From a virus, in the IMG/VR virus record IMGVR_UViG_3300037089_000506: a stretch of DNA of 64,000 nucleotides. One strand, given 5' to 3'. Numbering within the stretch: the first letter of the stretch is position 1; each line of letters begins with the position of its first letter. A model generated the notes under the pieces. It worked only from the letters and a program-made list of their open reading frames with translations. It did not search any database and was not told where the DNA came from. A program made the translations under genes and the position numbers. Below are positions 9,473 through 62,822 of the stretch, piece after piece.

Positions 9473-9869
9473 AATAAAGTTTAGAGCATGGCATGATATA
9501 GACAAGAAATGGTTACATGGATATGAAATGCATAACGAGGGATGCTCTATATATGGAGAAATAATAATTACAGGTAATTGGTTAAATGAAATGCATGGCC
9601 TGCTTGATATAAATAATATAATTGTCGAGCAGTACACCGGACTCAAGGATAAAAAAGGGCAGGATATTTATGAGGGGGATATATTAGGATTCCTAAACAA
9701 TGAGGGATATACTGTAAAAAGCTCAATAGTATGGGATTATGGTGTTTTTTGGTTTGGAAATGATTGGATTCTTGGAGTTGATGTTCAACAACTACCAATA
9801 GAAGTCGTTGGCAACATCCACGAAAATCCGGAATTATTGGAGGCAGAAGATGTGGGAAATAAAGTTTAG
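9465..9869 (+). CDS. YopX-family protein
   Basis: MREIKFRAW, QYTGLKD, IYEGDIL, VVGNIHENPELL. Confidence 0.9.
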   Translation: MREIKFRAWHDIDKKWLHGYEMHNEGCSIYGEIIITGNWLNEMHGLLDINNIIVEQYTGLKDKKGQDIYEGDILGFLNNEGYTVKSSIVWDYGVFWFGNDWILGVDVQQLPIEVVGNIHENPELLEAEDVGNKV

Positions 9870-15824: not shown

Positions 15825-15833
15825 TTCTATTTT

Positions 15834-15909
15834 AGAGGGATAGCTTAAGGTTAGAGCAGGAAATCTATTAAGGTTTCTGTGTTGAAGGTATCGAATCCTT
15901 CTCCCTCTG
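15834..15909 (+). tRNA. atypical tRNA-like gene (Asn-like, loop CTATTAA)
   Basis: AGAGGGA/TCCCTCT acceptor, D arm, G73; irregular anticodon arm and 8-nt T loop. Confidence 0.45.
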
Positions 15910-15941
15910 TACTTTCTGAACCATCAACACACTAATTGTAT

Positions 15942-18480: not shown

Positions 18481-18660
18481 ATCTATTAGGCAGTGGGCTT
18501 GGAAGTGGCCAGCTTTAATAAGTGGGACAGTAGGCTCTGGTTAGCATCCTGTAACGGGAAAGGGACCAGATGACTGGATATGGGCGCAACCAGCATCGAG
18601 TCGGGGAACGACAACGACTGGGCGCAACTTCCCTTTGGTGTAGTAACATACCTAATAGAT
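18481..18660 (+). ncRNA. unassigned structured RNA (~180 nt)
   Basis: perfect 10-bp terminal helix ATCTATTAGG/CCTAATAGAT, GGAAGT/ACTTCC helix, several internal hairpins. Confidence 0.55.
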
Positions 18661-18746
18661 TTTTATTTTTGAGGTCTTCGTAGCTAGTTCTGGACAAGCT
18701 AGTGAGGTTCCCTCAGTCCAACAAAGAACCACATAATGTCCTTCAG

Positions 18747-18860
18747 GCCATCGTGGTGGAAATGGAAATACACTGGGGACTTAACGAGGGTTTTCCTCTA
18801 GAGAATCTTGGTTAATCCCCCGCCTTTAATGGATTGAGGGTTCGACTCCCTCTGATGGCA
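18747..18860 (+). tRNA. tRNA-Leu(TAA) with 29-nt insert (18785-18813) between positions 36/37
   Basis: removing the insert gives GGGGA-CTTAAAA-TCCCC; type II body, A73. Confidence 0.85.
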
Positions 18861-18914
18861 GACAAATAAGACTGAGAGGAAATTATAAGAGATGTTTGGA
18901 ACTAAAATCAATTT

Positions 18915-18987
18915 GGCTTCCTAGCCCAAAGGCAGAGGCAATAGTTTCAAAAACTATAAAGTTTGAGTTCGAGTCTCAGGGAAGCTA
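18915..18987 (+). tRNA. tRNA with CAA anticodon but no long variable arm
   Basis: ATAGT-TTCAAAA-ACTAT arm, 5-nt variable loop, canonical T arm. Confidence 0.7.
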
Positions 18988-19365
18988 ATAGTGGCAAGAG
19001 CAATACCTGAAGCTCGTTATAAACCACAATATTATATATAAACAGAGGGTTAGAGGTAGCGAGAGTAGCTTGGTAGCTGCCTTGAAAAAGTATAAAATAG
19101 AGCTTGTTCATCAAAATTCTTAGTCTGCTATAAACAGGAGAGCAGTTGAAAAGTAGACGATGATGGATACATCAAAGCCATCTGAGGGTTAGAGTGTTAG
19201 CCCAAAAGCCTAGCAATAGGATACAATAGTATAACCTCCATCGTGATACGTGGGACTGCCTAGATGCTCGCTAGGAGGAAGGAACTATAAAATCGGGGAG
19301 TATCACGTAACTACCTTGAATGACAGCAACAGAGGTAGAAGGTGTACGAGAACCACCTTATTTTT

Positions 19366-19436
19366 GGTTCCTTAGAATAGAGGAAGTTCGTAAGATTCTC
19401 AATCTTAAAGCAGCAGTTCAATTCTGCTAGGAACTA
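19366..19436 (+). tRNA. tRNA-Glu(CTC)
   Basis: TAAGA-TTCTCAA-TCTTA. Confidence 0.8.
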
Positions 19437-19441
19437 TTCAA

Positions 19442-19514
19442 GGTCCCGTAGGCGAGCGGCTAAGCCATCAGCCTTTCACGCTGAGGATCGTCGGTTCAAA
19501 TCCGTCCGGGACTA
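19442..19514 (+). tRNA. tRNA-Glu(TTC)
   Basis: TCAGC-CTTTCAC-GCTGA. Confidence 0.9.
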
Positions 19515-19644
19515 GTAAATCCTATCCTATGGTGTAGCTACTCAGGATAGGTTGAGATAAACCTAACAGACGGTGCATGGGAGTATCAATATTAAGGGTT
19601 GTCATAATTAGAAATGAAGTGAGCACCTACTGAAGATGACCCTA

Positions 19645-19673
19645 TTGACTTTTTAGGAAAAGAGCAGTATAGT
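19645..19673 (+). promoter_or_regulatory. sigma70-type promoter
   Basis: TTGACT-17-TATAGT. Confidence 0.65.
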
Positions 19674-19679
19674 ATTAGT

Positions 19680-19922
19680 AAGAAGGGACCGGGAGTAGCA
19701 GAAAAGTAGTCGATGGTGTCCTGTAAAAAAGATGAGGTGCAAGGGCAAAACCTGCCATGGGTAGCGCTAGACTAATCAGGATAGCTTCCTGATGAATGCC
19801 CAATAGTTCTTATAAACCAGGAATTAGACGAAAAAGTATGCTAGATGAGGGCAGAGACAAACAAGTAATGGTGGTTTGTTTCATAGTGGTGAAAAACCTT
19901 AGCGGGTTTTAATCCCCTTCTT
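19680..19922 (+). ncRNA. unassigned structured RNA (~240 nt)
   Basis: starts just after a promoter; AAGAAGGG/CCCTTCTT terminal helix; internal hairpins; no ORF. Confidence 0.5.
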
Positions 19923-19927
19923 TTTTT

Positions 19928-20000
19928 AGGGACGTAGTTTAGTGGAGAACTACAAAGGCTAAACCCGGAGTAGGTGTTGGAACAAAACCAACCGTTCCTG
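19928..20000 (+). ncRNA. tRNA-like element with unpaired anticodon arm
   Basis: AGGGACG/CGTTCCT acceptor, GTTT/GAAC D stem, GTTGG/CCAAC T stem with AACAAAA loop; 73 nt. Confidence 0.4.
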
Positions 20001-20023
20001 TAAGGAATCCATGTTATCAAAGC

Positions 20024-20800
20024 ATGGAGGATAGTAGGAGTAGAGAAATGGGGAATATGTTACATCAGTTATTGGCCGTGGAGCAAGATTTAGTACAGCA
20101 GTCAAGGAACATTTTGGATGTGGAGTGCAAAAACACCTTCACTAAAAAGCAGGATTTGTTCGATGGTGTACTGAAGAATTACATTTCTTTCGATGCTGCT
20201 GGGGAACAAATTCCTCCAGAGAGTAAAGAAATTGTAACCACAGTAGCAGAGAAGATAGAGTATGCTCAGGGTGCGGTTATCAAGGCCATTGATGCCAGTA
20301 TCAGCAAGGAAGAGACGAATGCTTCTGGTACTGCTAAAGCCCCTCTCATGCTTGATGATGGTACTGACTTTGGTACCCTTTCTGCTACTTCTCTGATTGC
20401 GTTAGAGAAGTATCTTGTCAGGATTAGAGAAGTCTACAAGGACATTCCAACGGTAGACCCTGCTCGTTCATGGACTAAGGATTCTACACAGGCTAGAGCT
20501 ATCTATGTGGCTCCTGTAGATACTAAGTTCCGTTCTATCAAAAAGCTTGAGGTTATCACCAAAGTAGCTGCAACGGATAAGTTCCCTGCACAGACTGAGA
20601 TGGTACAGAACGAGGTCCAGGTAGGTAAGTACGAAACTACCTATACGTCAGGTAGGCTACAGCCTATAGAGAAGTCAAACCTTTTGTCAAAGATTGACAC
20701 TCTGATTCAAGCTGTAAAACAGGCTCGTCAAGCTGCTAATCAGGCACAGGTAATAAACGTCAAGTTAGGTGATAAAATATTCGCCTATATCAACAGTTAA
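20024..20800 (+). CDS. conserved hypothetical protein (LHQLLAVE...IPPES...SG.L...A...AN family)
   Basis: long ORF with biased codon usage; recalled resemblance to an actinobacterial hypothetical family, not verified. Confidence 0.6.
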   Translation: MEDSRSREMGNMLHQLLAVEQDLVQQSRNILDVECKNTFTKKQDLFDGVLKNYISFDAAGEQIPPESKEIVTTVAEKIEYAQGAVIKAIDASISKEETNASGTAKAPLMLDDGTDFGTLSATSLIALEKYLVRIREVYKDIPTVDPARSWTKDSTQARAIYVAPVDTKFRSIKKLEVITKVAATDKFPAQTEMVQNEVQVGKYETTYTSGRLQPIEKSNLLSKIDTLIQAVKQARQAANQAQVINVKLGDKIFAYINS

Positions 20801-21036
20801 ATAAATTGGAGTTACTTCCACCATGGCAGTATTTGTGCTAATCCATGAGGATATTTCGCAATAGCATAAGTATTGCTCTGGGGGGTAACTCCTTAAGAGC
20901 TAGTAGTAGTATCAGTAAATGGGCATACCCGTTAGGGCCGCCCAAGTAGAGTCTACGTAATTCCATCAGTTTATTGCTTGGCAGTTTTCTTAAAGTCTAT
21001 ATCGTGACAGAGGCATTGGCGACAATGATATAATTT

Positions 21037-21130
21037 AACGTAGGCATTGGTTCGAATCCAATCTTTCCCACTGTAAGCTTTATTAAAGAGCTTATTGTGG
21101 GAGAGGAGAGTCGGTGGCAGACTCGGCGTT
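21037..21130 (+). ncRNA. circularly permuted tRNA-like domain (YrlA-like) within a ~430 nt structured 3' region
   Basis: order AC3'-variable-T arm-acceptor3'-linker-acceptor5'-D arm-AC5', all stems paired. Confidence 0.7.
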
Positions 21131-21208
21131 TTTAGTAAAAATCATTGGGTGACTTCGGCCCGAAAGGATACTAGCAGCACTTACAATAGTCTTGAAAACT
21201 ATTAATCG

Positions 21209-21245
21209 GGCCGGGGGAAGGTAAGACCCCCGGTCCTTCTTTTTA
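21209..21245 (+). terminator. intrinsic terminator
   Basis: GGCCGGGGG/CCCCCGGTC hairpin plus T tract. Confidence 0.7.
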
Positions 21246-21258
21246 TTAGACTAATTAT

Positions 21259-21792
21259 ATGAGGTGTAATATGGACTATTTTACATTAAATAACGTGAAA
21301 GTATTTATGACATCAGCTCCGAATAATCTAGATATGGCAGAAATGCTAGGAATGGAAATGGAAGAAAATGAGATTAAATTAGCAATAGTATTATTAGGGG
21401 AAGAAGAATTAAAAAGATTATATGGAGATACTGTTTCTTTATTCAAAGTTTATTCTTCCTATGGAACCAAAGTATTATCCTATCCCATACCAGACTTTGA
21501 GGTTCCTGCTGATATAAGTAAATTTAATCAAGCTGTAGAAACAGTATGTGGTTATATAAAAAATAATAATGTGCTAGTACATTGCTGGGGTGGGCATGGT
21601 AGAACAGGAATTATGACAGTAGGAATTTGTGTGAGAACGGGGATGTCAGTAGAGAATGCGTATGAAATGATATCTAAAAAAAGAAAAATATTAGAAACAA
21701 ATGAACAATTTGAATTTTTATATGACTATGAAGAGTTTTGTATTAAATTAAGGAGTGAATATGATATTAGAGGAACAGCTACAAGTACTTAA
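21259..21792 (+). CDS. Cys-based (CX5R) tyrosine/dual-specificity phosphatase
   Basis: VLVHCWGGHGRTG. Confidence 0.85.
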   Translation: MRCNMDYFTLNNVKVFMTSAPNNLDMAEMLGMEMEENEIKLAIVLLGEEELKRLYGDTVSLFKVYSSYGTKVLSYPIPDFEVPADISKFNQAVETVCGYIKNNNVLVHCWGGHGRTGIMTVGICVRTGMSVENAYEMISKKRKILETNEQFEFLYDYEEFCIKLRSEYDIRGTATST

Positions 21793-22402
21793 TAATTATA
21801 TTGTCCAATTTATTCAGTATATGAAGGACAATAATAGATTTATTGTCTATGACTTGGAAACCAATGGATTTGTAGCTAACCCAATGCCTTCAGTATTATC
21901 AATATCAGCAGAATTATGTAAATTAAACTCCAATAAGACTATATCGGTTATTGATACTTATAATAGATTCTATTATTGTAAAGAGGAATATAACCCTAAA
22001 GCTACAAAAGTAAATGGACTCATTGATGATGAAATAAATAAAAGACGGATTGAAATTTGTGGTAGTTTTGATGATTACACTGATTATTTTTTAGATGACA
22101 TTGCTTCTTTTAAAACCTTTTGTGGTAATACCTCTGTATTCCTTGGATTTAATAATACTGGATTTGATAATATATTTCTTGAGGACTATATGATATTTCC
22201 TCACTCTCTGGATATAATGGTAGTTCAGGCTGCTCTAGAAAATGGTAAGTATAGGAAGCTGAAAGAAGTAGCCCCTGACTATGATGTTATTACTGATGAA
22301 GCAGAATTACATCAATCTTCTTATGATGTATACTTGACTAAAAGTATTTTTAGTAGTATGCTTAGTATGTCAACAGTGAGGATGATTGAACTAAAGGAGT
22401 AG
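21755..22402 (+). CDS. DEDDh 3'-5' exonuclease
   Basis: VYDLETNG, FNNTGFD, H.SSYDV. Confidence 0.8.
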   Translation: MNMILEEQLQVLNNYIVQFIQYMKDNNRFIVYDLETNGFVANPMPSVLSISAELCKLNSNKTISVIDTYNRFYYCKEEYNPKATKVNGLIDDEINKRRIEICGSFDDYTDYFLDDIASFKTFCGNTSVFLGFNNTGFDNIFLEDYMIFPHSLDIMVVQAALENGKYRKLKEVAPDYDVITDEAELHQSSYDVYLTKSIFSSMLSMSTVRMIELKE

Positions 22403-22876
22403 AAATGGAAAAGCCTAAAGTAGTATTGACTGGTGCTGATGGCAATGTATTCAATCTACTGAGCATCTGTACTAAAGCCCTGAAAGAGGCAGGGCAGAGG
22501 GATAAGGCTAAGGAGCTGGGGGAGAAGTTGTGGGAGGCGAGTTCGTATGAACACGCTCTATGTTTAATGGCAGAATTTTGTGAGGTAGAATAAATGGATG
22601 CGAATGATCTGATGGAAAAGTTCACTGTTAAGTATCAAGTTATTGTTTTAATTATACTGGGCATTCTAGGTTCTATTGCTCTAGGCACGTTTGCTCTTTC
22701 AATGGAAGGGCTGTTTCAGATTGTATTTGCAATAGGAGCAGGATTAGTATGCTGGTATATATCAAGGTCAGAGTTTGAGATTTATTCTCGTCCTGTTCTG
22801 ACTTCATATTATTCATTGGGTGTACTACTAATGATGCTATCTTTTGCAGCAGTATTTCTTCAATGAAATTATTCAA

Positions 22877-22952
22877 GCGAGTGTATCTCCTCACTCTGAT
22901 AAGGTGTTGAAAGGGTAGTAGGTGCAGGGAGGTTCGAGTCCTCCAACTCGCA
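22877..22952 (+). tRNA. D-armless tRNA-Ile(GAT)-like gene
   Basis: GCGAGT/ACTCGC acceptor, CACT-CTGATAA-GGTG arm, canonical T arm; only 8 nt where the D arm belongs and a ~21-nt variable region. Confidence 0.5.
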
Positions 22953-22972
22953 CATTGGGAATTAGATAATAT

Positions 22973-23044
22973 GCGGTATTAGCTCAGGGGTAGAGTCCTA
23001 GTTTTCCAAACTCGGGGTCGTCGGTTCGAATCCGATATGCCGCT
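22973..23044 (+). tRNA. tRNA-Gly(TCC)
   Basis: loop TTTCCAA, U73. Confidence 0.85.
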
Positions 23045-23413
23045 TTATAAAGGAGATGAATATGAATATGTTTGAATTTTTTGAAATGAAGGTTAACTAT
23101 GAGGAGCGCAAAGTAGATAACACTATTATTCCAAGTGTTGATGCTGTTATTGATACATGCGCCGTTAATGATTCTACTCAGCCTTATGAAACTGCTATTA
23201 AATGCAGTCATTACAATAATGGGGAATGGGTAGTAGTGGAGCAGTATGATAGTAAAGAAGAGGCTCAAAAGGGGCATGAGAGATGGGTACAAGTATTCAA
23301 GTCGTCACTCCCTACAAAGCTTATAGATGTTTCTGAGTGTCACATAGCTTCAGAGCTTACTGCTTTAGAGGGGAAAAGAGAGTATCTTTTAAATACATCA
23401 AATTAATTTTAAT

Positions 23414-23486
23414 CTACGGTTAGCTCAGTTGGTAGAGCCCTTGGCCGAAGACCAAGTTGTCCTCCGTTCGACTCGGAGACCGTGGA
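23414..23486 (+). tRNA. tRNA-Phe(GAA)
   Basis: CTTGG-CCGAAGA-CCAAG. Confidence 0.9.
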
Positions 23487-23488
23487 CT

Positions 23489-23561
23489 GTGACTGAGGCA
23501 GATTTGGTGTTGCGCCACCCTGTGAAGGTAGAGATAGAGGGTTCGACTCCCTCCAGCCACC
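23489..23561 (+). tRNA. tRNA-His(GTG)
   Basis: loop CTGTGAA, C73. Confidence 0.85.
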
Positions 23562-23574
23562 CTATAAAAAATAA

Positions 23575-23656
23575 GGGTCCGTGGTGGAACTGGCATACAC
23601 GTTGGTCTTAGGAACCAATGCCGAAAGGATTGAGGGTTCAACTCCCTTTGGACCCA
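23575..23656 (+). tRNA. tRNA-Leu(TAG)
   Basis: TTGGT-CTTAGGA-ACCAA, long variable arm. Confidence 0.9.
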
Positions 23657-23660
23657 TCGT

Positions 23661-23734
23661 GCCTTTGTAGCTCATATGGACAGAGCACTTCTCCACGAAA
23701 GAGGATGTAACAGGTTCGAACCCTGCCAAAGGTA
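23661..23734 (+). tRNA. tRNA-Arg(ACG)
   Basis: loop CCACGAA, A20 in D loop. Confidence 0.85.
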
Positions 23735-23736
23735 AT

Positions 23737-23838
23737 GGTTCTGTAGCTCAAATGGACAGAGCAACTGCCCTCTTTTTTACTTTAGCAGTAGAGTAATAAA
23801 GAAGCAGTAGGTAGCCCGTTCGAACCGGGCCAGGATCA
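23737..23838 (+). tRNA. tRNA-Arg(TCT) with 28-nt insert (23774-23801) at 36/37
   Basis: removal gives ACTGC-CCTCTAA-GCAGT; D loop nearly identical to the neighbouring Arg(ACG). Confidence 0.85.
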
Positions 23839-23840
23839 AA

Positions 23841-23940
23841 GGGACTAAGGCCGATTGGTTTAGGCACCGGCCTTTTTGAATACTTTTTAATAGAGTATTG
23901 AAAAAGCCGGTTGTGGTAGGTTCGATTCCTATTAGTCCCA
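23841..23940 (+). tRNA. tRNA-Lys(TTT) with 27-nt insert (23877-23903) at 36/37
   Basis: removal gives CCGGC-CTTTTAA-GCCGG; canonical D and T arms. Confidence 0.85.
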
Positions 23941-23962
23941 TAACTAATTATATGAGGATAGT

Positions 23963-24340
23963 ATGGCAGCAAAAAAAAAGAAAGTAATTGAAGTATGGGA
24001 AATTATTGTTATTAGTGTAGGCTTAGCTATAGGCTTATATGTGTTTGCTATAAAGCCCTATGTTGTTCCTTGGGTACAAGAAAAATTAAATATAGGCTTA
24101 GTGGCAGCAGTTCCTGCTAAAACAGAAATGATGTTACAATCATTAAAGTCAAGAGAATCAGCACCAGTATCAGCAGAGCGACAAGCCATTGAGGCTCTTA
24201 GGCTGAAGCACCTGAAGGTAAAGAATTTATTAGATGATGCTAATCAGATTTTTGGTATTGTTGCTTCATTGGTAGGTATTATTATAGGATTAAAAACCTT
24301 ACTAAGAAATGTAAAGGCTAAGAAGGTAGCAGTAAAGTAA
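23963..24340 (+). CDS. small two-TM membrane protein
   Basis: two hydrophobic helices, basic termini; function unknown (holin-like is a guess). Confidence 0.5.
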   Translation: MAAKKKKVIEVWEIIVISVGLAIGLYVFAIKPYVVPWVQEKLNIGLVAAVPAKTEMMLQSLKSRESAPVSAERQAIEALRLKHLKVKNLLDDANQIFGIVASLVGIIIGLKTLLRNVKAKKVAVK

Positions 24341-24345
24341 CACAA

Positions 24346-24416
24346 GGGGCTATAGCTCAGTTGTAGAGCGGTAGATCTGCATTCTACAGGTCGAGATGTC
24401 AAAGTCTCTAGCTCCA
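24346..24416 (+). tRNA. tRNA-Ala(TGC), variant T loop
   Basis: G3:U70, A73, GTAGA-TCTGCAT-TCTAC; T loop GTCAAA. Confidence 0.75.
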
Positions 24417-24863
24417 TTATTTTTTAGGGTAAGTTATGTCAAGCCAATTTTGAAAATATATTTTTTGTTCTGGTGTCAATTCATCTAGTGGAGGCAATGC
24501 ATTCGCCTTTATTTCTTCCATGAATTGAGTATTCTCTTTAAGCTGGACTAATGTTTCTCCATAATATTTCTTAGCATCTTCTCTAACATTCAAATTTGTT
24601 TTCTTGAAATCCCCTGCATGTCCTATTTCAATATGGTGATTCTCCTCAGGCTTACCCGATTCTGTTTCACATAAAGTGATAAGATTGTTTTCATCGAGTT
24701 CAAGTTCTGGTCTGCCAAAATTTATAATAAGTTCGAAAGACGCAACGTGATGAACATTAACTGCTTCAGTCTTACCACAAGCTTCACAGGCTGGATGCTT
24801 AGAGAGATAATCATGCATTACTTTATGCCATTCTGGGGAGCGTTTTTGATTGTGTAGTTCCAT
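24417..24863 (-). CDS. HNH endonuclease
   Basis: CEAC, VHH, NLITLCE, HH motifs. Confidence 0.75.
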   Translation of the reverse strand: MELHNQKRSPEWHKVMHDYLSKHPACEACGKTEAVNVHHVASFELIINFGRPELELDENNLITLCETESGKPEENHHIEIGHAGDFKKTNLNVREDAKKYYGETLVQLKENTQFMEEIKANALPPLDELTPEQKIYFQNWLDITYPKK

Positions 24864-24888
24864 AAATAATTAGTTTCACTAACTACAT

Positions 24889-25809
24889 ATGGTTAGGCTT
24901 ATAGAAGAGGAAGAATACACATTATTACTTGAAGGCTCAAGAATGAGTTGTATGGAGTTTGTAGAAAACTCACATCTGTATGAAAAAGTTTTTGATATAG
25001 ATGATAAAGATATAGAAATATTATCTTTACCTTTTATTCGGTTTACAAAACTCTTAGATTCTATTGCTATAAGCAATAATAAAAGTAAACTATTAGATAT
25101 CATGCAAGTGCCTTATAGGTATCAGCATATAACTAAGTCAGAAGAATTACTCTCTCCTATTTGTACTAAGACTCATAGAAAGCATCCTATTTCAATATAT
25201 TTTATACCATATTGTAATTGGTTTTATGATGGTGCTTTGGATTATATTAGTGTTGGCTATCCTATGGTGATGTATGACTTAATGAAGAAATGGTATTATT
25301 CTAATGAAATTTTTACTGATTTTAATGATGTATATACTTCAATAGTACCTAATAGACATATTGGTTCTATGAATAGAATTGACCAAGATATAATTTATGC
25401 TAAAGATAAAAAACTTTTTACTTTAGAGGAATATCAAACGGGAGTATATCATGAAATATCTCATTGGATATATGAAACATTATATACTACTAATAGTAAT
25501 TATATAAAAAATAGGCATGATTCTTCGTATCAAAGGGCTGCTAAGTATTACAAAGTTCCTAATATAATATTTTCTACTGTGGAACTTAATGCATATATCC
25601 ATGGATTACTTCAAAGAAAGAAAATGATGGGGGAGGATGAGTGGAATAATCTAACAATAGATGATTTATTTGAAATAGACCCTGGATTAGATGTAGTAAT
25701 GTCCTATGCTCAAAAGGATGCTATACATAAGCAAGCATTTAATAATTTTAAGCAACAAATAGTATCAAGATTAAATAGAGAACATATGCTTGGCACTAAT
25801 ATGAAATAA
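24889..25809 (+). CDS. HExxH-containing protein (possible Zn peptidase)
   Basis: VYHEISHW and ELNAY. Confidence 0.4.
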   Translation: MVRLIEEEEYTLLLEGSRMSCMEFVENSHLYEKVFDIDDKDIEILSLPFIRFTKLLDSIAISNNKSKLLDIMQVPYRYQHITKSEELLSPICTKTHRKHPISIYFIPYCNWFYDGALDYISVGYPMVMYDLMKKWYYSNEIFTDFNDVYTSIVPNRHIGSMNRIDQDIIYAKDKKLFTLEEYQTGVYHEISHWIYETLYTTNSNYIKNRHDSSYQRAAKYYKVPNIIFSTVELNAYIHGLLQRKKMMGEDEWNNLTIDDLFEIDPGLDVVMSYAQKDAIHKQAFNNFKQQIVSRLNREHMLGTNMK

Positions 25810-26082
25810 GGAGATTTATATGGATATAGATGTAAACAAAATAGCAGCTAAATTGGATTTACTTAGACTCAGACTAAACCAACAGAGGGACTTGACAGAG
25901 GAATTGACTAAGCTGTATATTGAAATCAATGTAATGTTAGGCACTCCCATTGATGTGCCTGTAGACCAGAGAACAAAAGCAAAAGCAGCATGGGGGGCTG
26001 ATCCTAATTATGTAAAGCCACCTGTAACCCCAGAGAGTCAAATTATGAAAGATCATATGCTTCAGAGAGATTGGTAATATAT

Positions 26083-26125
26083 CGGGATGTAGCTCAGATA
26101 GTAGAGCGGGTGGTTTGGGGCCATC
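26083..26125 (+). pseudogene. truncated tRNA-Pro(TGG): T arm and 3' acceptor lost
   Basis: CGGGATG, D arm, GGTGG-TTTGGGG-CCATC, then no T arm. Confidence 0.55.
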
Positions 26126-26178
26126 AGTTGACTAGAGAATTCTGATTTGGGAATACATTCCCTTTCTCAAAACACTAA

Positions 26179-26598
26179 TTGTGTATGGAAAAGAAATGTT
26201 TTAGATGTAATGCTTATAAAGATATATCTTCCTTCTCAAAATCCAAAAAGACTCCTGATAAATTACATTCTTGGTGTAAGGAATGTGTAAAAGATTATGA
26301 TCATAATCGTCATATAAACAAAAGATACACTATTCTTTTACAAAAAAAAGAATATAGAGAAAGTAGAAGATTCTGGTTAAAGGAGTACAAAAAAGGAAAA
26401 GTATGTCTACGGTGTGGAGAAAGTCATCCGGCTTGTTTGGTATTTCATCATAAAGATGATACTATAAAAGAAAATAATATAGCAGATATGATAAGAGGAG
26501 GGTATTCACTTAAAAATATAAAAAAAGAAATTGATAAATGTGAGGTTTTATGTTCTAATTGTCATAATAAAGAGCATTTCTCTAAAGATTATTTATAG
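26179..26598 (+). mobile_element. HNH homing endonuclease
   Basis: CFRC..CKEC Zn finger; CLRC, FHH, CEVLCSNCH; stop codon overlaps tRNA-Pro. Confidence 0.8.
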
Positions 26599-26668
26599 CC
26601 GATGTGGTGTAATCCGGCAGCACATGGCATTTGGGATGCTAGGGCACAGTTCAAATCTGGCATCGGCT
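26598..26668 (+). tRNA. tRNA-Pro(TGG)
   Basis: TGGCA-TTTGGGA-TGCTA. Confidence 0.8.
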
Positions 26669-27322
26669 ATTTTCCTATTGACTTTTTTAAAAAACCATAG
26701 TATACTATTTATAGATAGGAACTGCTAGACGGTTACCTAATCTAAGGAGTTAATATGTACAGTATGGTTAAGGAGTATCTTGAAAAGAACAAGGTTATTA
26801 TCACCTACGTGAGAAACGACCTTGGTTTCAAGATAGGAATTGTCGTGGCTATAGGTCAAGACAAAATTGGATGGTCTCTTGTAAACCATCGACACGATTA
26901 TGAGAAGAGGTATCTTAAGCCCCACCAAATTCCCGCAATCCAGAAAATGTTGCAGCGCATGAAAGATTACAAGCCTGGAGTGCTGGACAAGAATGGAAAG
27001 GAAATTCCTTTCCCCAAGATAGACATTTTCAAGTCGAAAGCATATCGCCTGTACTTGGATATGTTGCGTGATACTAACTGGGATGCAACTAGTGAGATTC
27101 CGGTTCCTTCCTTCGATAGAGAAGAAGGACTTCGTAGGGCTATTGAAATGGCAGTCAATGGAACTTTCAAAGTAGCATCATGGCTTACTCATCCATGGGA
27201 TCGCCCTCTGAACAGCTATATGAGAGAAGCCATCACCCAAATGATTGACCGCTCCCATAGGGTTAAAATGTTTCAGGCGTAAGGAGGTAAATAGTGAGGG
27301 ATTGTATTAGTTAAGTTCTTTA

Positions 27323-27625
27323 TAGGGTTGTAGCTTGTACGAGGCATAAGGCCATGCTATTGACTATAAGTACCATATTTATTAGGGCTAAGTCCAACCC
27401 TACGGGAATAGTTCCCATACTATTATTACCTACCTAATCTAGAGGGTGGATATGGGATTGCTGCGAACGACTAGTGCTGCTGGGTGGAGAGGTCGAGTCC
27501 TTACCAAGGATTAGGGGAACAACCTGAGATGGGTGTCTGTTGAAGGCCCTGAGCGTAATATTGGCGTGGTTGCTAAAATCCAGCAGCATCAGTAGAGAGA
27601 GAGGATGCCTTCTCTCTCTTTTTTA
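27323..27625 (+). ncRNA. unassigned structured intergenic RNA ending in a terminator
   Basis: TAGGGTTG/CAACCCTA, TCCCATA/TATGGGA, TGCTGCTGG/CCAGCAGCA helices; (AG)n/(CT)n terminator. Confidence 0.45.
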
Positions 27626-29708
27626 TCTTTTCTACTTGACATTTTTAATGAAATATGGTAGATTATATATGAGATAGCTGGAGGATAAAACCATACTTTT
27701 TACAAGGAGAAGAAAATGAACATATCTGTTATTATTCCTGTTGATGATCTTCATCAGTATCAATACAATTTTTGGTTTTATGATAATAATAATACTCTTT
27801 ACCTGGATGGATATTATGAAGTATCCAAACAAACAAAAAGGCATCACTGGTGTGTTCAACGAGGATATGATAGACTCTCTGGACGTTATCCTTATCCTAA
27901 AATTCCTCTTAATGAGGTTCCTTTTAATGAAGATATAAAGGAACAAGCAAAGAAAGTTCTTATAGACAGCATACAAGTTAAATTTTGGGAAAAGGAATAA
28001 GGAGCTTAGAATGGAAACAAAGAATGTTTGTTATTTACCATGGACAACAATATTAACTATTATATTTGTTGTATTAAAACTTACAAAAGCTATTGCTTGG
28101 AGCTGGTGGTGGGTGTTAAGTCCATTGTTGATTGTAATAGGTATAATAGGTATAGTTATATGTATCTATGCATTGATAGGATTACTTCATATTTTTTCTA
28201 AATAGGAGAATGTGATGCCTAAAGGTATTATTACTGATGAGCACAAGAAAGCAATGAAAGAAGGTAGAGAAAGAGCTAGAGCAGAAAAGATAGCCAATGG
28301 TGAACCTTTGAGAGTATCAAGAAAACAAAAGACAGTACAATCCCAAGGTAAACCTAAGCTATATATTACTGGAAAAGAAAAAGATGCATTGGATTTCTTT
28401 CCTAGTATTAGAGAGTCTTTACGCCCTCTTTATAGAAATAAAGAATGTGATGATATATGTATAGAGCTTTCCCATTCTCCTACATGGCAAAATGTAAGAT
28501 TAGTATTAAATAGACTCCAAGAAATTTTTGATATAGTAGAGAATAATATAATCAAAGCTAAACCTGTAAAAATAAGAAAGAAAAGAGAATTTACTGAAGA
28601 ACAAAGAAAAGCAATAGGTGAAAGATTTGCTTTAGCTCGTGCTAAGAAAGAATTAAAATGAATAATATTTTAGTTTTTATTATGCATTGAGCCTGCTTTG
28701 GATAAGGAGTGACTATGACAATACAAGAAGAGATATTAGAGCTTGAAACAAAACTTGAAAAACTTAAAGAAAAACAAAAAGAGCAACAAAAAAGAAAAGA
28801 ATTTAAAATAATAGACTGTATACAACTTAATATTATAGGTAGGAAAGGCTCACAAGGTTTTGACTATTCTGAAACAGTTATTGGACAGCGAGAATCACTA
28901 TATTCTTTTCAAAAAAATATAGAGGGTTCTATTATGTTAGAACAATACGCATATGATATAGCATTTAGAGCTATAGATCCAATTAAAAGAATGCAAGTTA
29001 TTTCAACATTCCCTTTGATTTTCTAAATACTAATTATACATGACAACAGAAAACATTTTGAAACTTGATGAAGGAATGATGATTGAAGAAGAGGTATTAG
29101 AAGAAGCATTAAGGGTTGCCCGATTACAACTTGGCTTCAAGCAGGTAATCCCTGGAGTTAATATAATGGACGCACACCAATCAGTGCCTGTCTTTGGAAC
29201 CCATTGGGGCAGGGGACTACTTATATCCTATCAAGGCAGATTCGACGCCGTAGTAGGCTCCTGTGGTACCTCTCATGCTGAATTGAAGAAGCAGATGCAG
29301 CCAGGAGAAAGCACTGAAGGCACTTTTTATTATGGATATGATGGTAGAACTAAAACCCTTTATTTGGATTATGCTACCGATAGAACCTTCGAATTTAATA
29401 ATAAAACAATGGGAGCTATTATTAATGCTTTACGCTTGACACCAGGATTCTTTCATAATATGATAGTAGGATAAGGAGGAAGTATGCTTAATTTTGATTT
29501 TATGGAGTCGGAACATGAGGAGAACGAGGAGGACAATGTACAATTTGGTCCTAAATGGAATCCCTTCTATAAACCACATCCCTGTGAAAGATGTGGAGCT
29601 ACGAATACTGAGTATGTAGAAGACCCCTATAATTCTGAAATACTTGATGATCATGAAATGCATTGGTTCTGTCCTGATTGCTATAGAGAGTTAATACAAG
29701 ACATATAA

Positions 29709-29783
29709 GGGAAATTAGCTCAGTTGGTTTAGAGCATCTGTTTTACACGCAGAGGGTCGTAGGTTCGACTCCTACATTTCCCA
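29709..29783 (+). tRNA. tRNA-Val(TAC)
   Basis: TCTGT-TTTACAC-GCAGA. Confidence 0.9.
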
Positions 29784-29789
29784 TTTTTT

Positions 29790-29890
29790 GAGCCGATAGC
29801 TCCAACAGTAGAGCGGGTGGCTGTAAAATACTTTCTTACGAGAGTACTTTAGTAACCACCTTGTTGTAGGTTCGATTCCTGCTCGGCTCG
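29790..29890 (+). tRNA. tRNA-Asn(GTT) with 28-nt insert (29825-29852) at 35/36
   Basis: removal gives GGTGG-CTGTTAA-CCACC; G73, short variable loop. Confidence 0.8.
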
Positions 29891-29895
29891 TACTT

Positions 29896-29966
29896 TCCTC
29901 TTTTGTGTAAAAGTGGCATACAAGTTTTTGAAACTTAGGGAGGTGGGGCAGTACCATCAAGAGGAA
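29896..29966 (+). tRNA. tRNA-Gln(TTG)-like, non-canonical T loop
   Basis: TCCTCTT/AAGAGGA, loop TTTTGAA, T loop GGCAGTA. Confidence 0.55.
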
Positions 29967-30005
29967 CTAATTGGAACAAACCTAACTAATTAGTTAGAGG
30001 TTCCA

Positions 30006-30680
30006 ATGACAATAAGTTTTGTATATGCTCTGAGTAAAGAAGAAATTGAATATTTATTAAAGACAGAAGATTCATTACGAGAAGTTATGATTAAATGCGG
30101 TTTACCTACTAAAGGGGGTAATTACAGAACATTTAATAAAATGCTTATTAAAAAAGAGATTGATCCTATTTTAATAAGGGAAATTAAAGAAAAAGGAAGA
30201 AAATTAGTTTTTTCTAGAAGACAGACTCCTTTTGAAGAAATTTTTTGTGAGCATAGTAAAGTTAAAGGACATACTGTAAAAAAAGAATTAGCTAAAATAA
30301 TACCCTATAAATGTACTTGTGGAAATGAAGGGGAATGGCAAGGAAAGAAGCTTGTATTGCAGCTTGAGCATAAGAACGGGGTTTCTGATGATAATAAAAT
30401 AGAAAATTTATGTTTCTTGTGCCCTAATTGTCATAGTCAAACTGATACCTTTTGTGGAAAGAGTGATAACTTTAAGAAAGAGTCTGAAGCACGTAAACAA
30501 ATGAGAGAGCAGCTTAAAGAAGAAAAAAGACTTAGGCTCCTAAAAGAAAGGGTTCCTTTTTTGTTAACTATAAAAAAAGAATGGGGATGGGTAGAGAAGG
30601 TAGCAAAAGAATGGAAACTTTCTCATACAGAGGTACGAAGGTGGATAAATAAAAATTATCCAGAATTCATTGTCTCATAG
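30006..30680 (+). mobile_element. HNH homing endonuclease
   Basis: LQLEHKNG...NLCFLCPNCHSQT; stop overlaps tRNA-Gln. Confidence 0.85.
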
Positions 30681-35303: not shown

Positions 35304-35756
35304 ATGGAGAAAACCTTTAAAGGAAGTACCATGATTTACGGTTTTTTTGGTGAGTATAGCTTTTTAAGTAATTTCCATCTTTGTGAAATTCCTTTTGAAG
35401 GGCTCATTTACCCCTCTACCGAATATGCATTTCAGGCTGCTAAAACTTTAGACATTCAGGAACGAAAGTTTATTAGAACGGCTACTACTTGTGGTAAGGC
35501 TAAACGAGCAGGAATGACAGTAACATTACGTTCTGATTGGGAGGGAATAAAAATAGGTATTATGTATGATGTGAATATGACTAAATATGAAACATATCCT
35601 GAGCTTAAGGAGAAACTTCTAGCTACAGGTGAAGAAGAACTTGTAGAAGGCAATACGTGGGGAGATACCTTCTGGGGACAGGTAGATGGAATTGGCAAGA
35701 ATTATTTAGGTTTAGTTTTAATGCAGATTAGAAAGGAACTAAAAGAGGGCCTATAG
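35304..35756 (+). CDS. NADAR family protein
   Basis: FLSNF, STEYAFQAAK, DWE..K..IM, LVEGN.WGD.FWG, N.LG..LM.IR. Confidence 0.9.
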   Translation: MEKTFKGSTMIYGFFGEYSFLSNFHLCEIPFEGLIYPSTEYAFQAAKTLDIQERKFIRTATTCGKAKRAGMTVTLRSDWEGIKIGIMYDVNMTKYETYPELKEKLLATGEEELVEGNTWGDTFWGQVDGIGKNYLGLVLMQIRKELKEGL

Positions 35757-35817
35757 CTCAGTGGTAAAGCACCGTCCTCTAAACACGGGAACTAGGGTTC
35801 AATTCCCTATAGGCTCA
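35747..35817 (+). tRNA. amber suppressor-type tRNA (CTA)
   Basis: complete cloverleaf, loop CT-CTA-AA, C31:C39 mismatch. Confidence 0.75.
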
Positions 35818-48665: not shown

Positions 48666-49607
48666 ATGGCGTATTTCATTTATTGTATTGAGAACATAAT
48701 AAACCACAAAAAATATATAGGGCAAACATCTAAAACTATTGAAGAAAGATTTTGTGCCCATAAAAAATGCATGATTAGAAGAAAGAATCAAGTTTTGTAT
48801 GATGCTATGAATAAATATGGTATAGATAATTTTATTATTTACCAAGTGGAAGAGTGTAATAAAGAGAATTGTAGTGAAAAGGAACAGTATTGGATAAAAC
48901 AATATAACACCACTAATAGGGATTTTGGCTATAATATGACTGGTGGTGGAGAGAAATGTAATAAGCTAGAAGGATGGTCAGAAGAAAATAAAAAAGAACT
49001 GTATAAGAAACAAGCTATGAAAAGAAAGAAATCTGCTCAAAAGTTAGGGGTAGAACATTTTAATCAATTACCTGAGAATAGGGTAAAATTAGGTAAACAT
49101 CTGAAAGGAAAGACCTTTGAGGAAGTTTATGGAAAGGATCGTTCTGATGCTATCAAGCTTAAAATAAGTAGAACCTTAAAAAATATTGGGCATAAGCCCC
49201 CTATACACCATGGAGGGAATCATGGGTATCATCTTACTAATGAGGATAAGCAAAAAATGAGCGTTGCTCGTAGAGGAAAGACATATGAAGAGATATATGG
49301 AATCACAACTGCTAAGGTGATGAAGGATAAAAAAGTAGAAGTTAGCCTTAAAAGACAGTTCAATATCAAAAAAGAATCACTAAAGATAAGAATAAAGGTT
49401 CTAGATTATCTTAGTAATAATAAGGGAGTCTCTTACAAAGATATCCCTGTAGGGAAGGCTTCTATTCATAATATTAGAACACTTCTACGAGAAATTGGTA
49501 TTGACAATTATCAATTTTTTAAGTATAATTTCTTAGGAAATGATAAAGATTGGTGGGAATTCTTCCAATCTAAAATTTTATTTTTAAGGAGTAAATATGC
49601 AGAATAA
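48666..49607 (+). mobile_element. GIY-YIG homing endonuclease
   Basis: FIYCIENIINHKKYIGQT, GYNMTGGG; overlaps the RNA ligase start. Confidence 0.85.
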
Positions 49608-50871
49608 CACAGCAGTAGTGATGAAAATTAGTAGGATAGAACCTATAGTAGGAGCAGATAACATTGTCAAAGCTATACTTAGCCTAGAGGGAATAGAGCA
49701 GGGGCAGGTAGTAGTAGGTAAAAATGATTTTTATGAAGAAAATAATGTAGTATTTTTTGACTCCAATATGATATTAAACTTAGATTTTATTAAGGTAGTA
49801 GATAAGCAATCTCCTGATTATGGTAAGGAGGAGTTTAAGTCAATCGGGAGCTATTTATCCAAAGGTAATCGGGTAAAGGTAGTGAGACTCAAAAATACTA
49901 TTTCACTGGGGCTTGCAATAGGGGTAGGCAAGTTTAAGCCCTACAATGTTGATCTTGAGGAAGGGAATAGTTTTACTTCCCTTAATGGTGTTGATGTCTG
50001 CCACAAATATGTGCCTCCACAGAAGCAGATTCAGGTTCAAGGTAAGAAGGGAAGGAAAGTAAAGAAAACTTCTCGTCTAATCCCTGATCAGTTTCATTTC
50101 CATATTGATACTTCACAACTATTGCGAAATGTACATAAGTTTAATCCTAACCAGATAATCAGTATCAGTCGGAAAATACACGGAACTTCAGCTATCTGTG
50201 CTAATGCTCTAGTAAAGAGGAAATTAAACCTGCTGGAGAAAATAGCAAAGAGTATAGGAATAAAGATACAGGATACTGAGTACGATTATCTCTATGCATC
50301 CAGGTCAGTAGTCAAGAACGATGCTACTACTTCTGGCTTCTACAAGGAAGATATCTGGACTGAGGCTGGAAAAAAATATTTCCTAACTAAACTTCATGCT
50401 GGTGAAACTGTCTACTATGAGATAGTGGGATTCCTCCCTTCTGGCAATGCTATCCAGAAGGGATATCGTTATGGTTGTATACCTAATACGTATAAAGTTG
50501 CTGTCTATAGGATTACTGCTACTGGTACTGATGGTACTGTGTATGAGTATTCATGGCAAGCAATGAAACAGCGCTGCGAAGAACTTCAGGTGCCTATGGT
50601 AGAGGAATTCTACTATGGCAAGGCTTCCGATTTCCCTCTATACTCCAATCCTACCAATCCTGAGTATTGGGTTAGCTATTTTATTAATGAATTGAAGGCT
50701 AATTATTTGGAAAAAAAGGCCGAAGATTGCGATGGTAACCCTGATGAGGGTATCGTTATCAGGATCGAGGGTATGAACATCGAGGCTTACAAGCTGAAGT
50801 CTGAAGCATTCCTCTTGAAGGAGTCAAAGGCACATGAAGAAGAGGTTATCGATATAGAAGAACAGGCATAA
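49597..50871 (+). CDS. ATP-dependent RNA ligase (DRB0094/Rnl2-like)
   Basis: N-terminal OB-like domain, KIHGTS (motif I), YEIVG, EGIVIR, YKLKS. Confidence 0.85.
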   Translation: MQNNTAVVMKISRIEPIVGADNIVKAILSLEGIEQGQVVVGKNDFYEENNVVFFDSNMILNLDFIKVVDKQSPDYGKEEFKSIGSYLSKGNRVKVVRLKNTISLGLAIGVGKFKPYNVDLEEGNSFTSLNGVDVCHKYVPPQKQIQVQGKKGRKVKKTSRLIPDQFHFHIDTSQLLRNVHKFNPNQIISISRKIHGTSAICANALVKRKLNLLEKIAKSIGIKIQDTEYDYLYASRSVVKNDATTSGFYKEDIWTEAGKKYFLTKLHAGETVYYEIVGFLPSGNAIQKGYRYGCIPNTYKVAVYRITATGTDGTVYEYSWQAMKQRCEELQVPMVEEFYYGKASDFPLYSNPTNPEYWVSYFINELKANYLEKKAEDCDGNPDEGIVIRIEGMNIEAYKLKSEAFLLKESKAHEEEVIDIEEQA

Positions 50872-60945: not shown

Positions 60946-61689
60946 ATGAACAATAAGTCATATAAGTTAGGGAAAACCTGTTCTATTTGTGGAAAGCAAA
61001 TAATAGATAGTAATAAAGGTGGAAAGTGTTCTCTCCATAGAGATCGAACAGGAAAAAATAATCCTTTCTATGGTAAGCATCATGATAAGAAAACTATTGA
61101 AGCTACAAAAATAAAATTAAAAGAAATATCTAAAGATTTATGGAAAGATAAGGGGTATAGGGAAAAAGTAATAAAAGCTATCTCTAAACCTCGAAGAGAG
61201 GGTTTTAAAAAAGAGCAAAGTGAAAGAATAACTCAATGGTATAGAGATAACCCAGAGCAGTTAGATATAAGAAGAGAGGCTATGAAAGAATCTTGGAAGT
61301 CTGGGAGTATTTCCTATAATGAGCATTCTTCTTACAATAGCAGTAAAATAGAAAAATCTCTATTATATGATATACAACAATTTTGTTCAGAAGCACAAGA
61401 ACACTATACTATTAAAACTACTGAAAAATGGTATTTACCAGATATCTACATTGAAAGTAAAAAAATAATAATAGAATTATATGGTGAATATTGGCACGCT
61501 CACTCTGATCGTTACCAAGAAGAAGATGTTGTTCACCATAATGTAAAGGCTAAAGATATTTGGAGCAAAGATAAAATAAGAGAAAAGGTCTTGACAGAAC
61601 TAGGGTATACTGTTATTATTATATGGAGTGAGAAATATAAAAAGGATAAAGAAAATACTTTGTCCTATATTAGGAGTTTATTATGTTAG
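60946..61689 (+). mobile_element. NUMOD3 + Vsr/DUF559-like homing endonuclease
   Basis: NPFYGKHH, YLPDIYI...IELYGEYWH; overlaps the rtcB start. Confidence 0.75.
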
Positions 61690-62822
61690 AAATTCGTGGA
61701 AAATACAATTCTGCTATCATTTATAATGATAATGTGGAACAGTCAGCTTTATCTCAAATTTATGCTCTTCTAAATAATGAGGTTTCTATTGGAAGTAAAA
61801 TTCGTATTATGCCAGATGTTCATGCAGGAGCAGGGTGTGTCATAGGGTATACTGCAACTCTTACAAATAAAATAATAGTAAATTTAATAGGTGTTGATAT
61901 TGGGTGTGGAATCACTTCTATATGTATAGGAAAAAAGGATATAGATTTCCAGAAACTTGATGACATCATTCATACCTATGTACCTTCAGGTCACAATGTA
62001 CATACTTCTCAATCTGGTGGTGAATGGATTCAAAAAGATTTTAAGAAATCTTCCATCTATGATGATGTCAGAAAAATATGTGAGAAGCAAGATCAGGATT
62101 TTAATCGAGTTATGGCTTCACTAGGATCGAGTGGGGGAGGCAACCATTTTTGTGAGGTAGATAAGGATCAAGATGGCCTACTCTGGCTTACTGTTCATTC
62201 AGGCTCTCGTAACTTTGGTTTGAAGATTGCCAATTACTGGCAATCTATAGCGAAGGCTAAAACTCATGGTACTGAAGGTACCATGAATGGGTTGGAGTAT
62301 TTAAAGGATGAGGACTATCAAGGATACTTGACAGATATGATGATAGCTCAAATTTATGCTCATAAGAATCGAGAGTATATATTACAGCAGATTCAAGAGA
62401 AGATGGATTTAGTCTATGGTGATGGTCGTTCTGTTGAGTCTGTCCATAACTATATTGATCTTGACCATGAAATTATCCGTAAGGGAGCAATATCAGCTAT
62501 GCTAAATGAGCCTGTGATTATTCCTTGGAATATGCGAGATGGATTGATTATAGGCACGGGAAAGGGCAATCCAGACTGGAATTTCAGTGCTCCTCATGGT
62601 GCTGGTCGTATCATGGGTAGGCAGGTAGCAAAGAAATCATTACAATTATCTGACTTTGAGGATTCAATGAAGGGAATATGGACTTCATGCGTTTCTAAGG
62701 ATACTATTGATGAATCCCCAATGGCTTATAAGCCTTATGAGGAAATACAGGATTTGATAGGGGATACTGTAGATATAAAGTATACTTTAAAGCCTGTATA
62801 TAGCTTCAAGGCGAATGAATAA
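61683..62822 (+). CDS. rtcB: RtcB RNA ligase
   Basis: MPDVHAG, GVDIGCG, GGGNHF, HSGSR, HNY, PHGAGR, DESPMAYK. Confidence 0.95.
   Translation: MLEIRGKYNSAIIYNDNVEQSALSQIYALLNNEVSIGSKIRIMPDVHAGAGCVIGYTATLTNKIIVNLIGVDIGCGITSICIGKKDIDFQKLDDIIHTYVPSGHNVHTSQSGGEWIQKDFKKSSIYDDVRKICEKQDQDFNRVMASLGSSGGGNHFCEVDKDQDGLLWLTVHSGSRNFGLKIANYWQSIAKAKTHGTEGTMNGLEYLKDEDYQGYLTDMMIAQIYAHKNREYILQQIQEKMDLVYGDGRSVESVHNYIDLDHEIIRKGAISAMLNEPVIIPWNMRDGLIIGTGKGNPDWNFSAPHGAGRIMGRQVAKKSLQLSDFEDSMKGIWTSCVSKDTIDESPMAYKPYEEIQDLIGDTVDIKYTLKPVYSFKANE

Follow-up and report, generated by a model that had tools for sequence, protein, structure and literature searches.

Protein-cut tRNA introns are known from archaea and eukaryotes, and to our knowledge bacteria are held to splice tRNA by self-splicing introns only. 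RNase III removes hairpin inserts, the intervening sequences, from 23S rRNA, and the rRNA remains fragmented. For E. coli RNase III, Pertzev and Nicholson (2006, PMC1540722) describe a minimal substrate of 34 nt in which cleavage follows nucleotide 6 and releases a product of 28 nt whose 11-bp stem is capped by a tetraloop. The same text describes a 2-bp distal box, UA/UG, in which UG is stringent, a free loop, and a pair 9:30 (bp 3 from the cut) that is A-U or U-A, with G-C at this place blocking binding. Measured end to end, the distal boxes cover 22 bp, which places the end of each 10 bp from its cut (PMC3867540). Among phages, Lak megaphages have ‘enigmatic’ tRNA introns (Devoto et al. 2019, PMC6784885, Table S6) that resemble those described here in being non-ribozyme inserts of the anticodon loop with a patchy distribution; the ones listed measure 79-141 nt and have a T-arm, and a 26-33-nt hairpin is absent among them. 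No published description of such hairpin tRNA introns in bacteria or their viruses was found in the open-access literature.

The window analysed here (the whole stretch of DNA, 64,000 nt) is part of a 109.5-kb, AT-rich virus record (IMG/VR IMGVR_UViG_3300037089_000506) that is ~62% complete and derives from peat metagenomes, and a large tRNA cluster lies within it. The initial annotation had reported four tRNAs with 27-29 nt anticodon-loop inserts. All were found at the quoted sequences, and excision in silico left canonical tRNAs, called by ARAGORN as Leu(taa), Arg(tct), Lys(ttt) and Asn(gtt); in its intron mode, the same program miscalls these genes (Lys, Phe, Phe). The range 23737-23940 that had been assigned to the family holds the Arg and Lys inserts, whereas those of Leu and Asn lie outside it. 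The genes and their introns are the following.

18747..18860, plus strand: pre-tRNA-Leu(UAA) with a long variable arm, hairpin intron inside (covariance model R1, 72 bits)
18785..18813, plus strand: Leu intron, 29 nt, split at 36/37, mismatch at bp 2
23737..23838, plus strand: pre-tRNA-Arg(UCU) with C33, hairpin intron inside (the intron-free Arg(UCU) of relative L155 has the identical mature loop with C33)
23774..23801, plus strand: Arg intron, 28 nt, split at 36/37, mismatch at bp 3
23841..23940, plus strand: pre-tRNA-Lys(UUU), hairpin intron inside
23877..23903, plus strand: Lys intron, 27 nt, split at 36/37, 10 bp, mismatch at bp 2
29790..29890, plus strand: pre-tRNA-Asn(GUU) with G73, hairpin intron inside (synteny: L155 has an intron-free Asn(GUU) after Val)
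29825..29852, plus strand: Asn intron, 28 nt, split at 35/36 (within the anticodon), internal loop below the cut, mismatch at bp 4

In all four introns base k pairs with base -(k+2), 9 of 10 pairs being formed, most with a pairing probability of 0.75-1.0. When the inserts were shuffled, 0.1-0.7% of trials reached 9 pairs, and 0.006-0.02% did so with the pairs at bp 9 and 10 as well. The hairpins of 10-11 bp that had been proposed are present as paired stems, but the Lys stem has 10 bp rather than 11 and each stem contains one 1x1 mismatch close to the cut, at bp 2, 3 or 4. In three of the precursors (Leu, Arg and Lys) the helix continues across the exon into the anticodon stem, in keeping with the proposed stacked helix of ~20 bp; in Asn it is interrupted by an internal loop, and the proposal fails there. 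No intron-free gene for Lys(UUU), Arg(UCU), Leu(UAA) or Asn(GUU) occurs across the 109.5-kb record (~62% complete), as had been stated for the window. Codon usage likewise agrees with the earlier claim, with AAA and AAT ranking first and second, TTA eighth, and AGA the commonest Arg codon (47%). The close relative L155 (a neighbouring protein is 91% identical) supports the tRNA identities: at the equivalent places its Arg(UCU), Lys(UUU) and Asn(GUU) genes are free of introns, and its tRNA-Leu retains the intron with compensatory changes.

Further tRNA features of the window were recorded. At 15833-15910 there is an atypical Asn(AUU)-like tRNA with G73, an enlarged anticodon loop and an 8-nt T-loop; an Asn(ATT) call is also made in L206 and in Lak phages. 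The tRNA-like element at 22878-22953 has an acceptor stem, a T-arm and a GAU loop and lacks a D-arm, the matching place in L155 being occupied by an ordinary Ile(GAU). C33 stands in place of U33 in the Phe, Arg(ACG) and Arg(UCU) tRNAs (23414-23487, 23660-23735 and 23737-23838), and Arg(ACG) is miscalled Ser(CGA) by ARAGORN. An HNH nuclease ORF (26179-26598) truncates a tRNA-Pro(UGG) in its T-arm region, leaving the 5' part at 26082-26135, and is followed by a different, complete tRNA-Pro (26596-26670), a replacement of the homing type. Finally, an amber-suppressor tRNA (anticodon CUA) is found at 35747-35817, yet TAG closes 18 of 80 long ORFs (code 11); genes resembling it occur in L222 (CUA) and L206 (UUA).

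Viral, metagenome and genome collections were scanned with patterns, which together with a covariance model and inspection of neighbouring tRNAs yielded 36 distinct members of the family, with 10 anticodons, in ~28 records. Arg UCU is the most frequent (13), followed by Lys UUU (6), Leu UAA and Asn GUU (4 each), and Thr UGU and Trp CCA (2 each); CAU, Lys CUU, Glu UUC and Ile UAU have one member each. This spread weakens the earlier argument from anticodon nucleases, since Trp, Thr, Ile, Met and Glu tRNAs are split too, and since the anticodon is hidden in the precursor only, any protection would reach no further than the precursor. All members lie in what looks like a phage tRNA cluster and share a fixed architecture of a 10-nt 5' arm, a loop of 4-11 nt and a 12-nt 3' arm, giving introns of 26-33 nt. 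Because the T-arm distance and the bases at bp 5-10 or 7-10 were prescribed by the search patterns, which left the 5' distance to the anticodon stem free, the conservation at bp 5-10 and the T-arm distance are biased; ten members recovered without fixing those bases serve as an unbiased subset. We regard it as almost certain that this is a real, selected and widespread intron family.

A genome scan with a narrow pattern for bacterial chromosomal copies gave a single match, to a phage-like contig of 4.4 kb from a Clostridia bin, and none came up in 26 relatives. Promoter counts were near chance. One Leu-type tRNA (L222:1065-1177) has a 32-nt hairpin 3 bases out of register that would leave a 10-nt loop, and this member may be decayed or processed otherwise. 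The stretch L116:16403-16514 carries an unrelated insert. The smallest complete-looking carrier, G034 (L500, L508), is a 33-kb record with terminal repeats, a hairpin-intron tRNA-Thr and an Rnl5-like ligase.

BLAST of the window tRNAs against GenBank phages returned nothing useful, and the cultured, T4-like carriers surfaced through pattern matches, namely Aeromonas phages PX29 and Ah1. A tRNA-Arg(UCU) intron is also present in Aeh1, avDM12-TAAL, phiWae14 and AsFcp_4, directly after gene 57B, while AsFcp_1 and AsFcp_2 are identical to PX29. Four different Arg tRNA bodies occupy this gene-57B locus, all with paired, compensated intron stems. In the tRNA clusters read from Aeh1 and PX29 the intron-bearing gene is the sole Arg(UCU). 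Annotations can be corrected here: the Aeh1 gene is omitted from the published tRNA list, which has no Arg(UCU) (PMC1524935), and is called tRNA-Glu in GenBank, where that of PX29 is called a two-piece tRNA-Lys. A tRNA-like sequence of 117-119 nt with a longer anticodon-loop insert of another kind was seen at L525:1501-1617 (PX29 83777-83893; Ah1 84975-85093).

Cuts placed 10 and 12 nt from the top of the hairpin restore a 7-nt loop with a sensible anticodon in 35 of the 36 members, the register taken from the hairpin alone assigning 28 members to 36/37 and 7 to 35/36. The 2-nt 3' overhang claimed for the window introns is borne out by their pairing and extends to the family, in which a stagger of 2 gives 93% pairing and other staggers 40-59%. 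Among 17 aligned members, both sides have changed at 10 of 14 stem pairs. As a structure-pair shuffle is blind to kinship, we relied instead on controls with slid partners, which pair at 44-60% compared with 92% for the true partners, and on a per-anticodon test. In the latter, with each of the 10 anticodons counted once, the last two bases of the intron are complementary to the exon end at 19 of 20 positions (expected 11.3, p~1.5e-4), and the intron is thus tailored to its host anticodon. Moreover, phiAS5 carries an intron-free Arg(UCU) allele whose body is ~92% identical to that of PX29, which fixes the junction at 36/37. The junction is also fixed in G001, where an intron-free Lys(UUU) and an intron-bearing Lys(CUU) have identical bodies.

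The initial annotation had attributed excision to an RNase III-like cut followed by a phage ligase. Its geometry is upheld by the covariation, the intron-free twins and the distal-box match, whereas splicing and the two enzymes are matters that we infer. Mapped from the descriptions in PMC1540722 and PMC3867540, the distal box falls at bp 10 (U-A) and bp 9 (U.G). These are the least variable pairs of the family, bp 10 being U-A in 34/34 and bp 9 U.G in 33/34, and the unbiased subset gave 10/10 and 9/10, with bp 8 divided evenly between U-A (5) and A-U (5). The U-A, U.G, U-A run that had been noted at bp 8-10 is therefore present in the four window introns, but only bp 9 and 10 hold family-wide. 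In related phages, where covariation had been put forward as a check, the stems covary and bp 9/10 are near-invariant.

The family thus agrees with the E. coli rules for the distal box (U-A/U.G at bp 10/9) and for the 2-nt 3' overhang. Likewise, 31 of 34 members have A-U or U-A at bp 3 (two have G-C and one, the window Arg, a mismatch), in line with the rule for position 2 of the proximal box. The modal intron length of 28 nt (20/34) equals the product size of the minimal substrate, and bp 7 is mostly C-G, like pair 13:26 of the model substrate. Base pairs form at the two overhang positions in 34/34 and 29/34 members, and such positions are paired in ~90% of in vivo RNase III sites (PMC6212723). 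Agreement is looser elsewhere, where the E. coli rules favour A-U or U-A at bp 1, A-U at bp 2 and G-C at bp 4: the family has C-G or G-C at bp 1 in 9/34, a mismatch at bp 2 in 12/34 and G-C at bp 4 in only 8/34. According to PMC1540722, C-G or G-C at bp 1 lowers E. coli cleavage 7-14-fold, and loss of the 11th pair costs 50-fold in vitro; this pair is possible in 28/34 members, while introns of 26-27 nt have 10 bp. The preferences at bp 1, 2 and 4 modulate cleavage and do not abolish it, and hosts differ. Together with the anticodon stem, the 36/37 introns form ~19-20 bp, as against ~22 bp overall, with no fewer than 11 bp between cut and loop, in the E. coli rules. Mismatches and loops near the site can restrict RNase III to one strand, as PMC1540722 and PMC3867540 describe, and one-strand cutting can be a concern for Asn with its internal loop. 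For Aquifex RNase III the literature finds the distal-box sequence irrelevant; varied hosts are plausible because a comparable wobble in the distal box is seen with B. subtilis RNase III (PMC11780869). No RNase III gene (PF14622, PF00636) was found in the carriers searched, the window record being only ~62% complete, and the nuclease would therefore be that of the host.

Candidate joining enzymes and a metallophosphoesterase are encoded in the window itself.

49597..50871, plus strand: predicted Rnl5-like ATP-dependent RNA ligase, candidate sealing enzyme (phrog_968, E 5e-49; fold match to Naegleria Rnl5)
61683..62822, plus strand: RtcB ligase, alternative candidate sealing enzyme
38843-40627: metallophosphoesterase, 594 aa

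RtcB, the metallophosphoesterase and the Rnl5-like ligase represent two RNA ligation chemistries in one phage. The product of ORF 49597-50871 has an N-terminal OB domain and nucleotidyltransferase motifs, with Lys193 in motif I, and no C-terminal appendage. Its best fold match is Naegleria Rnl5 (E 9e-15), its catalytic residues are invariant across 56 homologs, and its score of 35 bits against TIGR02306 (DRB0094) stays below the curated cut-off of 151. On sequence grounds it appears to represent a separate Rnl5-like subfamily (phrog_968), with a predicted 3'-OH/5'-P ligase activity.

This ligase is the strongest protein common to three barely related carriers (G000, G001, G003). A homolog occurs in 5 of 13 carrier records, and a full-length match in none of 29 controls. 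The initial annotation had proposed it as the sealing enzyme, which agrees with its Rnl5-like nature and with the company such ligases keep with the introns; against this, RtcB is also present, and two complete carriers, both Aeromonas genomes, lack this type, but have PF09414 (Rnl2-type) and Rnl1 genes. Taken broadly, a PF09414 ligase is present in 10 of 13 carrier records and in 5 of 5 complete ones, compared with 6/26 and 4/14 in controls; the three carrier records without one are fragments (5-42%). The Fisher values (0.002-0.011) overstate the link because controls differ in size and kinship. Since RtcB and Rnl1 are patchy (RtcB was not found in four complete carriers, nor Rnl1 in three) and a PF09414 ligase is present in every complete carrier, the shared denominator is a ligase acting on 3'-OH and 5'-P ends, such as RNase III leaves. 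A weakness of this view is the junction itself, which is a break in a loop, while the known Rnl2 and Rnl5 enzymes prefer duplex nicks; they seal such nicks, and NgrRnl is feeble on single strands (PMC4408790), Rnl1 being the loop-sealing type. The converse idea, that such a ligase implies an intron, was rejected, as 22 other ligase-bearing records were without a hairpin intron among the matches listed; the ligase, common also in intron-less phages, has other work.

Taken together, these observations suggest the following route. In the precursor the intron folds as a hairpin of 10-11 bp whose last two bases pair with the 5' exon end, and the helix extends via U33/U34:A37/A38 into the anticodon stem. 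Host RNase III would recognise the intron half through the U.G/U-A distal box at bp 9-10 and the A-U or U-A at bp 3. Cutting of both strands would free the hairpin, 26-33 nt long and ending in a 2-nt 3' overhang, and leave exon ends bearing a 3'-OH and a 5'-phosphate, which a phage ATP-dependent RNA ligase would join into a 7-nt anticodon loop. That ligase is here probably ORF 49597-50871, and in the T4-like carriers would be Rnl2 or Rnl1. We consider it very probable that the introns are spliced in vivo, and moderately probable that cutting is done by host RNase III and sealing by a phage ATP-dependent ligase. Intron-bearing tRNAs would then likely fail to mature wherever the phage ligase is not made, and tRNA maturation could possibly be tied to it.

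Transcript data bear on whether the exons are joined at all. Four peat metatranscriptome assemblies (three samples) matched 18500-30200, so that the phage or its relatives are present in RNA libraries. No joint in them skips an intron, and the four genes are barely covered, Arg and Lys with almost zero; metatranscriptome libraries rarely contain mature tRNA. The sole intron-spanning RNA contig, 151 nt from a relative, covers the Leu intron unspliced and includes the 5' leader, and hence represents precursor or DNA. It would suit RNAs that are never religated: left intact, or cleaved by RNase III without rejoining, they would be decoys luring anticodon nucleases, synthetases or RNase III, or would simply be destroyed; the intervening hairpins of 23S rRNA, excised by RNase III and never rejoined, offer a precedent, and intron-free genes suffice in close relatives. 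However, a decoy needs no exact 7-nt loop and body-matched anticodon, which are kept in 35 of 36 members across 10 anticodons. The intron-bearing gene is moreover the only Arg(UCU) in the Aeh1 and PX29 clusters read, and a 3'-OH/5'-P-type ligase is present in every complete carrier. Rejoining would be needed here, unlike in rRNA, because the tRNA is cut in or next to its anticodon. We therefore hold an absence of religation to be unlikely, although it is the strongest of the alternatives.

Next in order, and unlikely as well, is excision by a different nuclease, either an anticodon nuclease or a phage or host enzyme that has escaped recognition, leaving cyclic phosphate ends for RtcB or for end-healing and an ATP-dependent ligase. 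The RtcB and metallophosphoesterase of the window, the Rnl1 of the T4-like carriers and a phosphoesterase common to G001 and G003 would fit it, as would the members whose bp 1-2 depart from the E. coli RNase III rules. On the other hand, the four complete carriers without RtcB speak against it, and the only nucleases common to G000, G001 and G003 are of the HNH homing type, the ligase being their strongest shared protein. A different nuclease would also leave the distal-box U.G, the bp 3 rule and the 28-nt size unexplained.

The distribution of the introns is patchy among relatives, L155 having them in Leu and Glu and none in Arg, Lys and Asn. At L155:8366-9277 a nuclease-like ORF and an intron-free Arg(UCU) are followed by the leftover 3' half of an intron-bearing Arg gene, which begins inside the intron loop; the nuclease cassette has displaced the intron-bearing gene. 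This pattern fits a tolerated element caught in homing-nuclease traffic, and the introns may persist because ligase-bearing phages tolerate them, and may in addition block homing nucleases that target tRNA genes. Such replacement, the patchiness and the homing-type nucleases that adjoin many of these tRNAs could also point to an insert acting at the DNA level, either a palindrome that shields tRNA genes from homing nucleases or a mobile remnant, with the genes being pseudogenes or restored by DNA excision. There is no target-site duplication, however, the exons are still canonical, and a paired intron has been kept in four different Arg bodies at one Aeromonas locus. Furthermore, G.U pairs kept at a fixed position indicate RNA pairing, and this disfavours the DNA-level account, which we judge improbable; it may account for spread, not for processing.

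A self-cleaving or self-splicing RNA, which would suit the lack of an identified phage nuclease, is highly improbable for a plain 26-33 nt hairpin that has no conserved unpaired core, a loop free in length (4-11) and sequence, and no Rfam ribozyme or intron match. Group I and II introns were rejected on the same lack of an Rfam match and on size, their catalytic core comprising some hundred nt. An archaeal bulge-helix-bulge (BHB) intron was rejected too, because the cuts lie within a helix 2 bp apart and EndA (PF01974) is absent from 5 carriers, a positive control having been detected in 4 archaea; the initial annotation was thus right to set aside group I self-splicing and BHB/EndA splicing alike.

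If splicing by RNase III and a phage ligase is correct, it would constitute a third tRNA splicing route, in which RNase III products are rejoined and not left cut, and host RNase III would be the splicing endonuclease for a widespread class of 26-33-nt hairpin introns in bacteria. It would also supply a natural substrate for Rnl2/Rnl5-type phage ligases, whose physiological substrates are unknown (PMC4408790), and a mechanism for part of the unexplained phage tRNA introns.

Comparison with the Lak introns separates two types. A Lak-type, tRNA-shaped intron was rejected for the present family, which is a plain hairpin with no T-arm or acceptor-like stem, and both types coexist in G001 and G028. 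The second type, at L331:9532-9653 and 9668-9803 (G001) and L503:175-299 (G028), is 50-51 nt long and Lak-like, with an internal T-arm; here the cuts may be the work of tRNA end-processing enzymes, with sealing by the same ligase. With archaeal and eukaryal splicing (EndA/TSEN with RtcB or Trl1), the phage introns share their short length, their place in the anticodon loop, the pairing of anticodon and intron, and the proposed two protein cuts followed by ligation. They differ in having no bulge-helix-bulge, in lying at 36/37 or 35/36 and not at 37/38, in that no EndA gene was found, and in the predicted 5'-P/3'-OH ends as opposed to cyclic phosphate.

The intervening sequences of 23S rRNA are likewise hairpin inserts in a stable RNA, longer than the phage introns, which may behave as a rejoined counterpart of them. 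A parallel to the proposed enzyme pair exists in the kinetoplastid editosome, which combines RNase III-type endonucleases with Rnl2-type REL ligases (PMC1540722 and PMC4408790), although it is eukaryotic, guided by RNA and devoted to mRNA editing. As for the ligase, ORF 49597-50871 shares its OB domain and nucleotidyltransferase with NgrRnl and DraRnl (Rnl5, PMC4408790), its best structural match, at 16% identity and with ~85 additional residues. The closest likeness on the nuclease side is uR1.1, derived from T7 R1.1, for which PMC1540722 gives the same 28-nt product, 11-bp stem with tetraloop, 2-nt 3' overhang, UA/UG distal box, A-U or U-A at position 2 of the proximal box and free loop sequence. 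The phage introns have C-G at bp 1 more often than uR1.1 and are often mismatched at bp 2. In the same text uR1.1 is an mRNA processing site that is never rejoined, whereas the phage introns sit in the anticodon loop.
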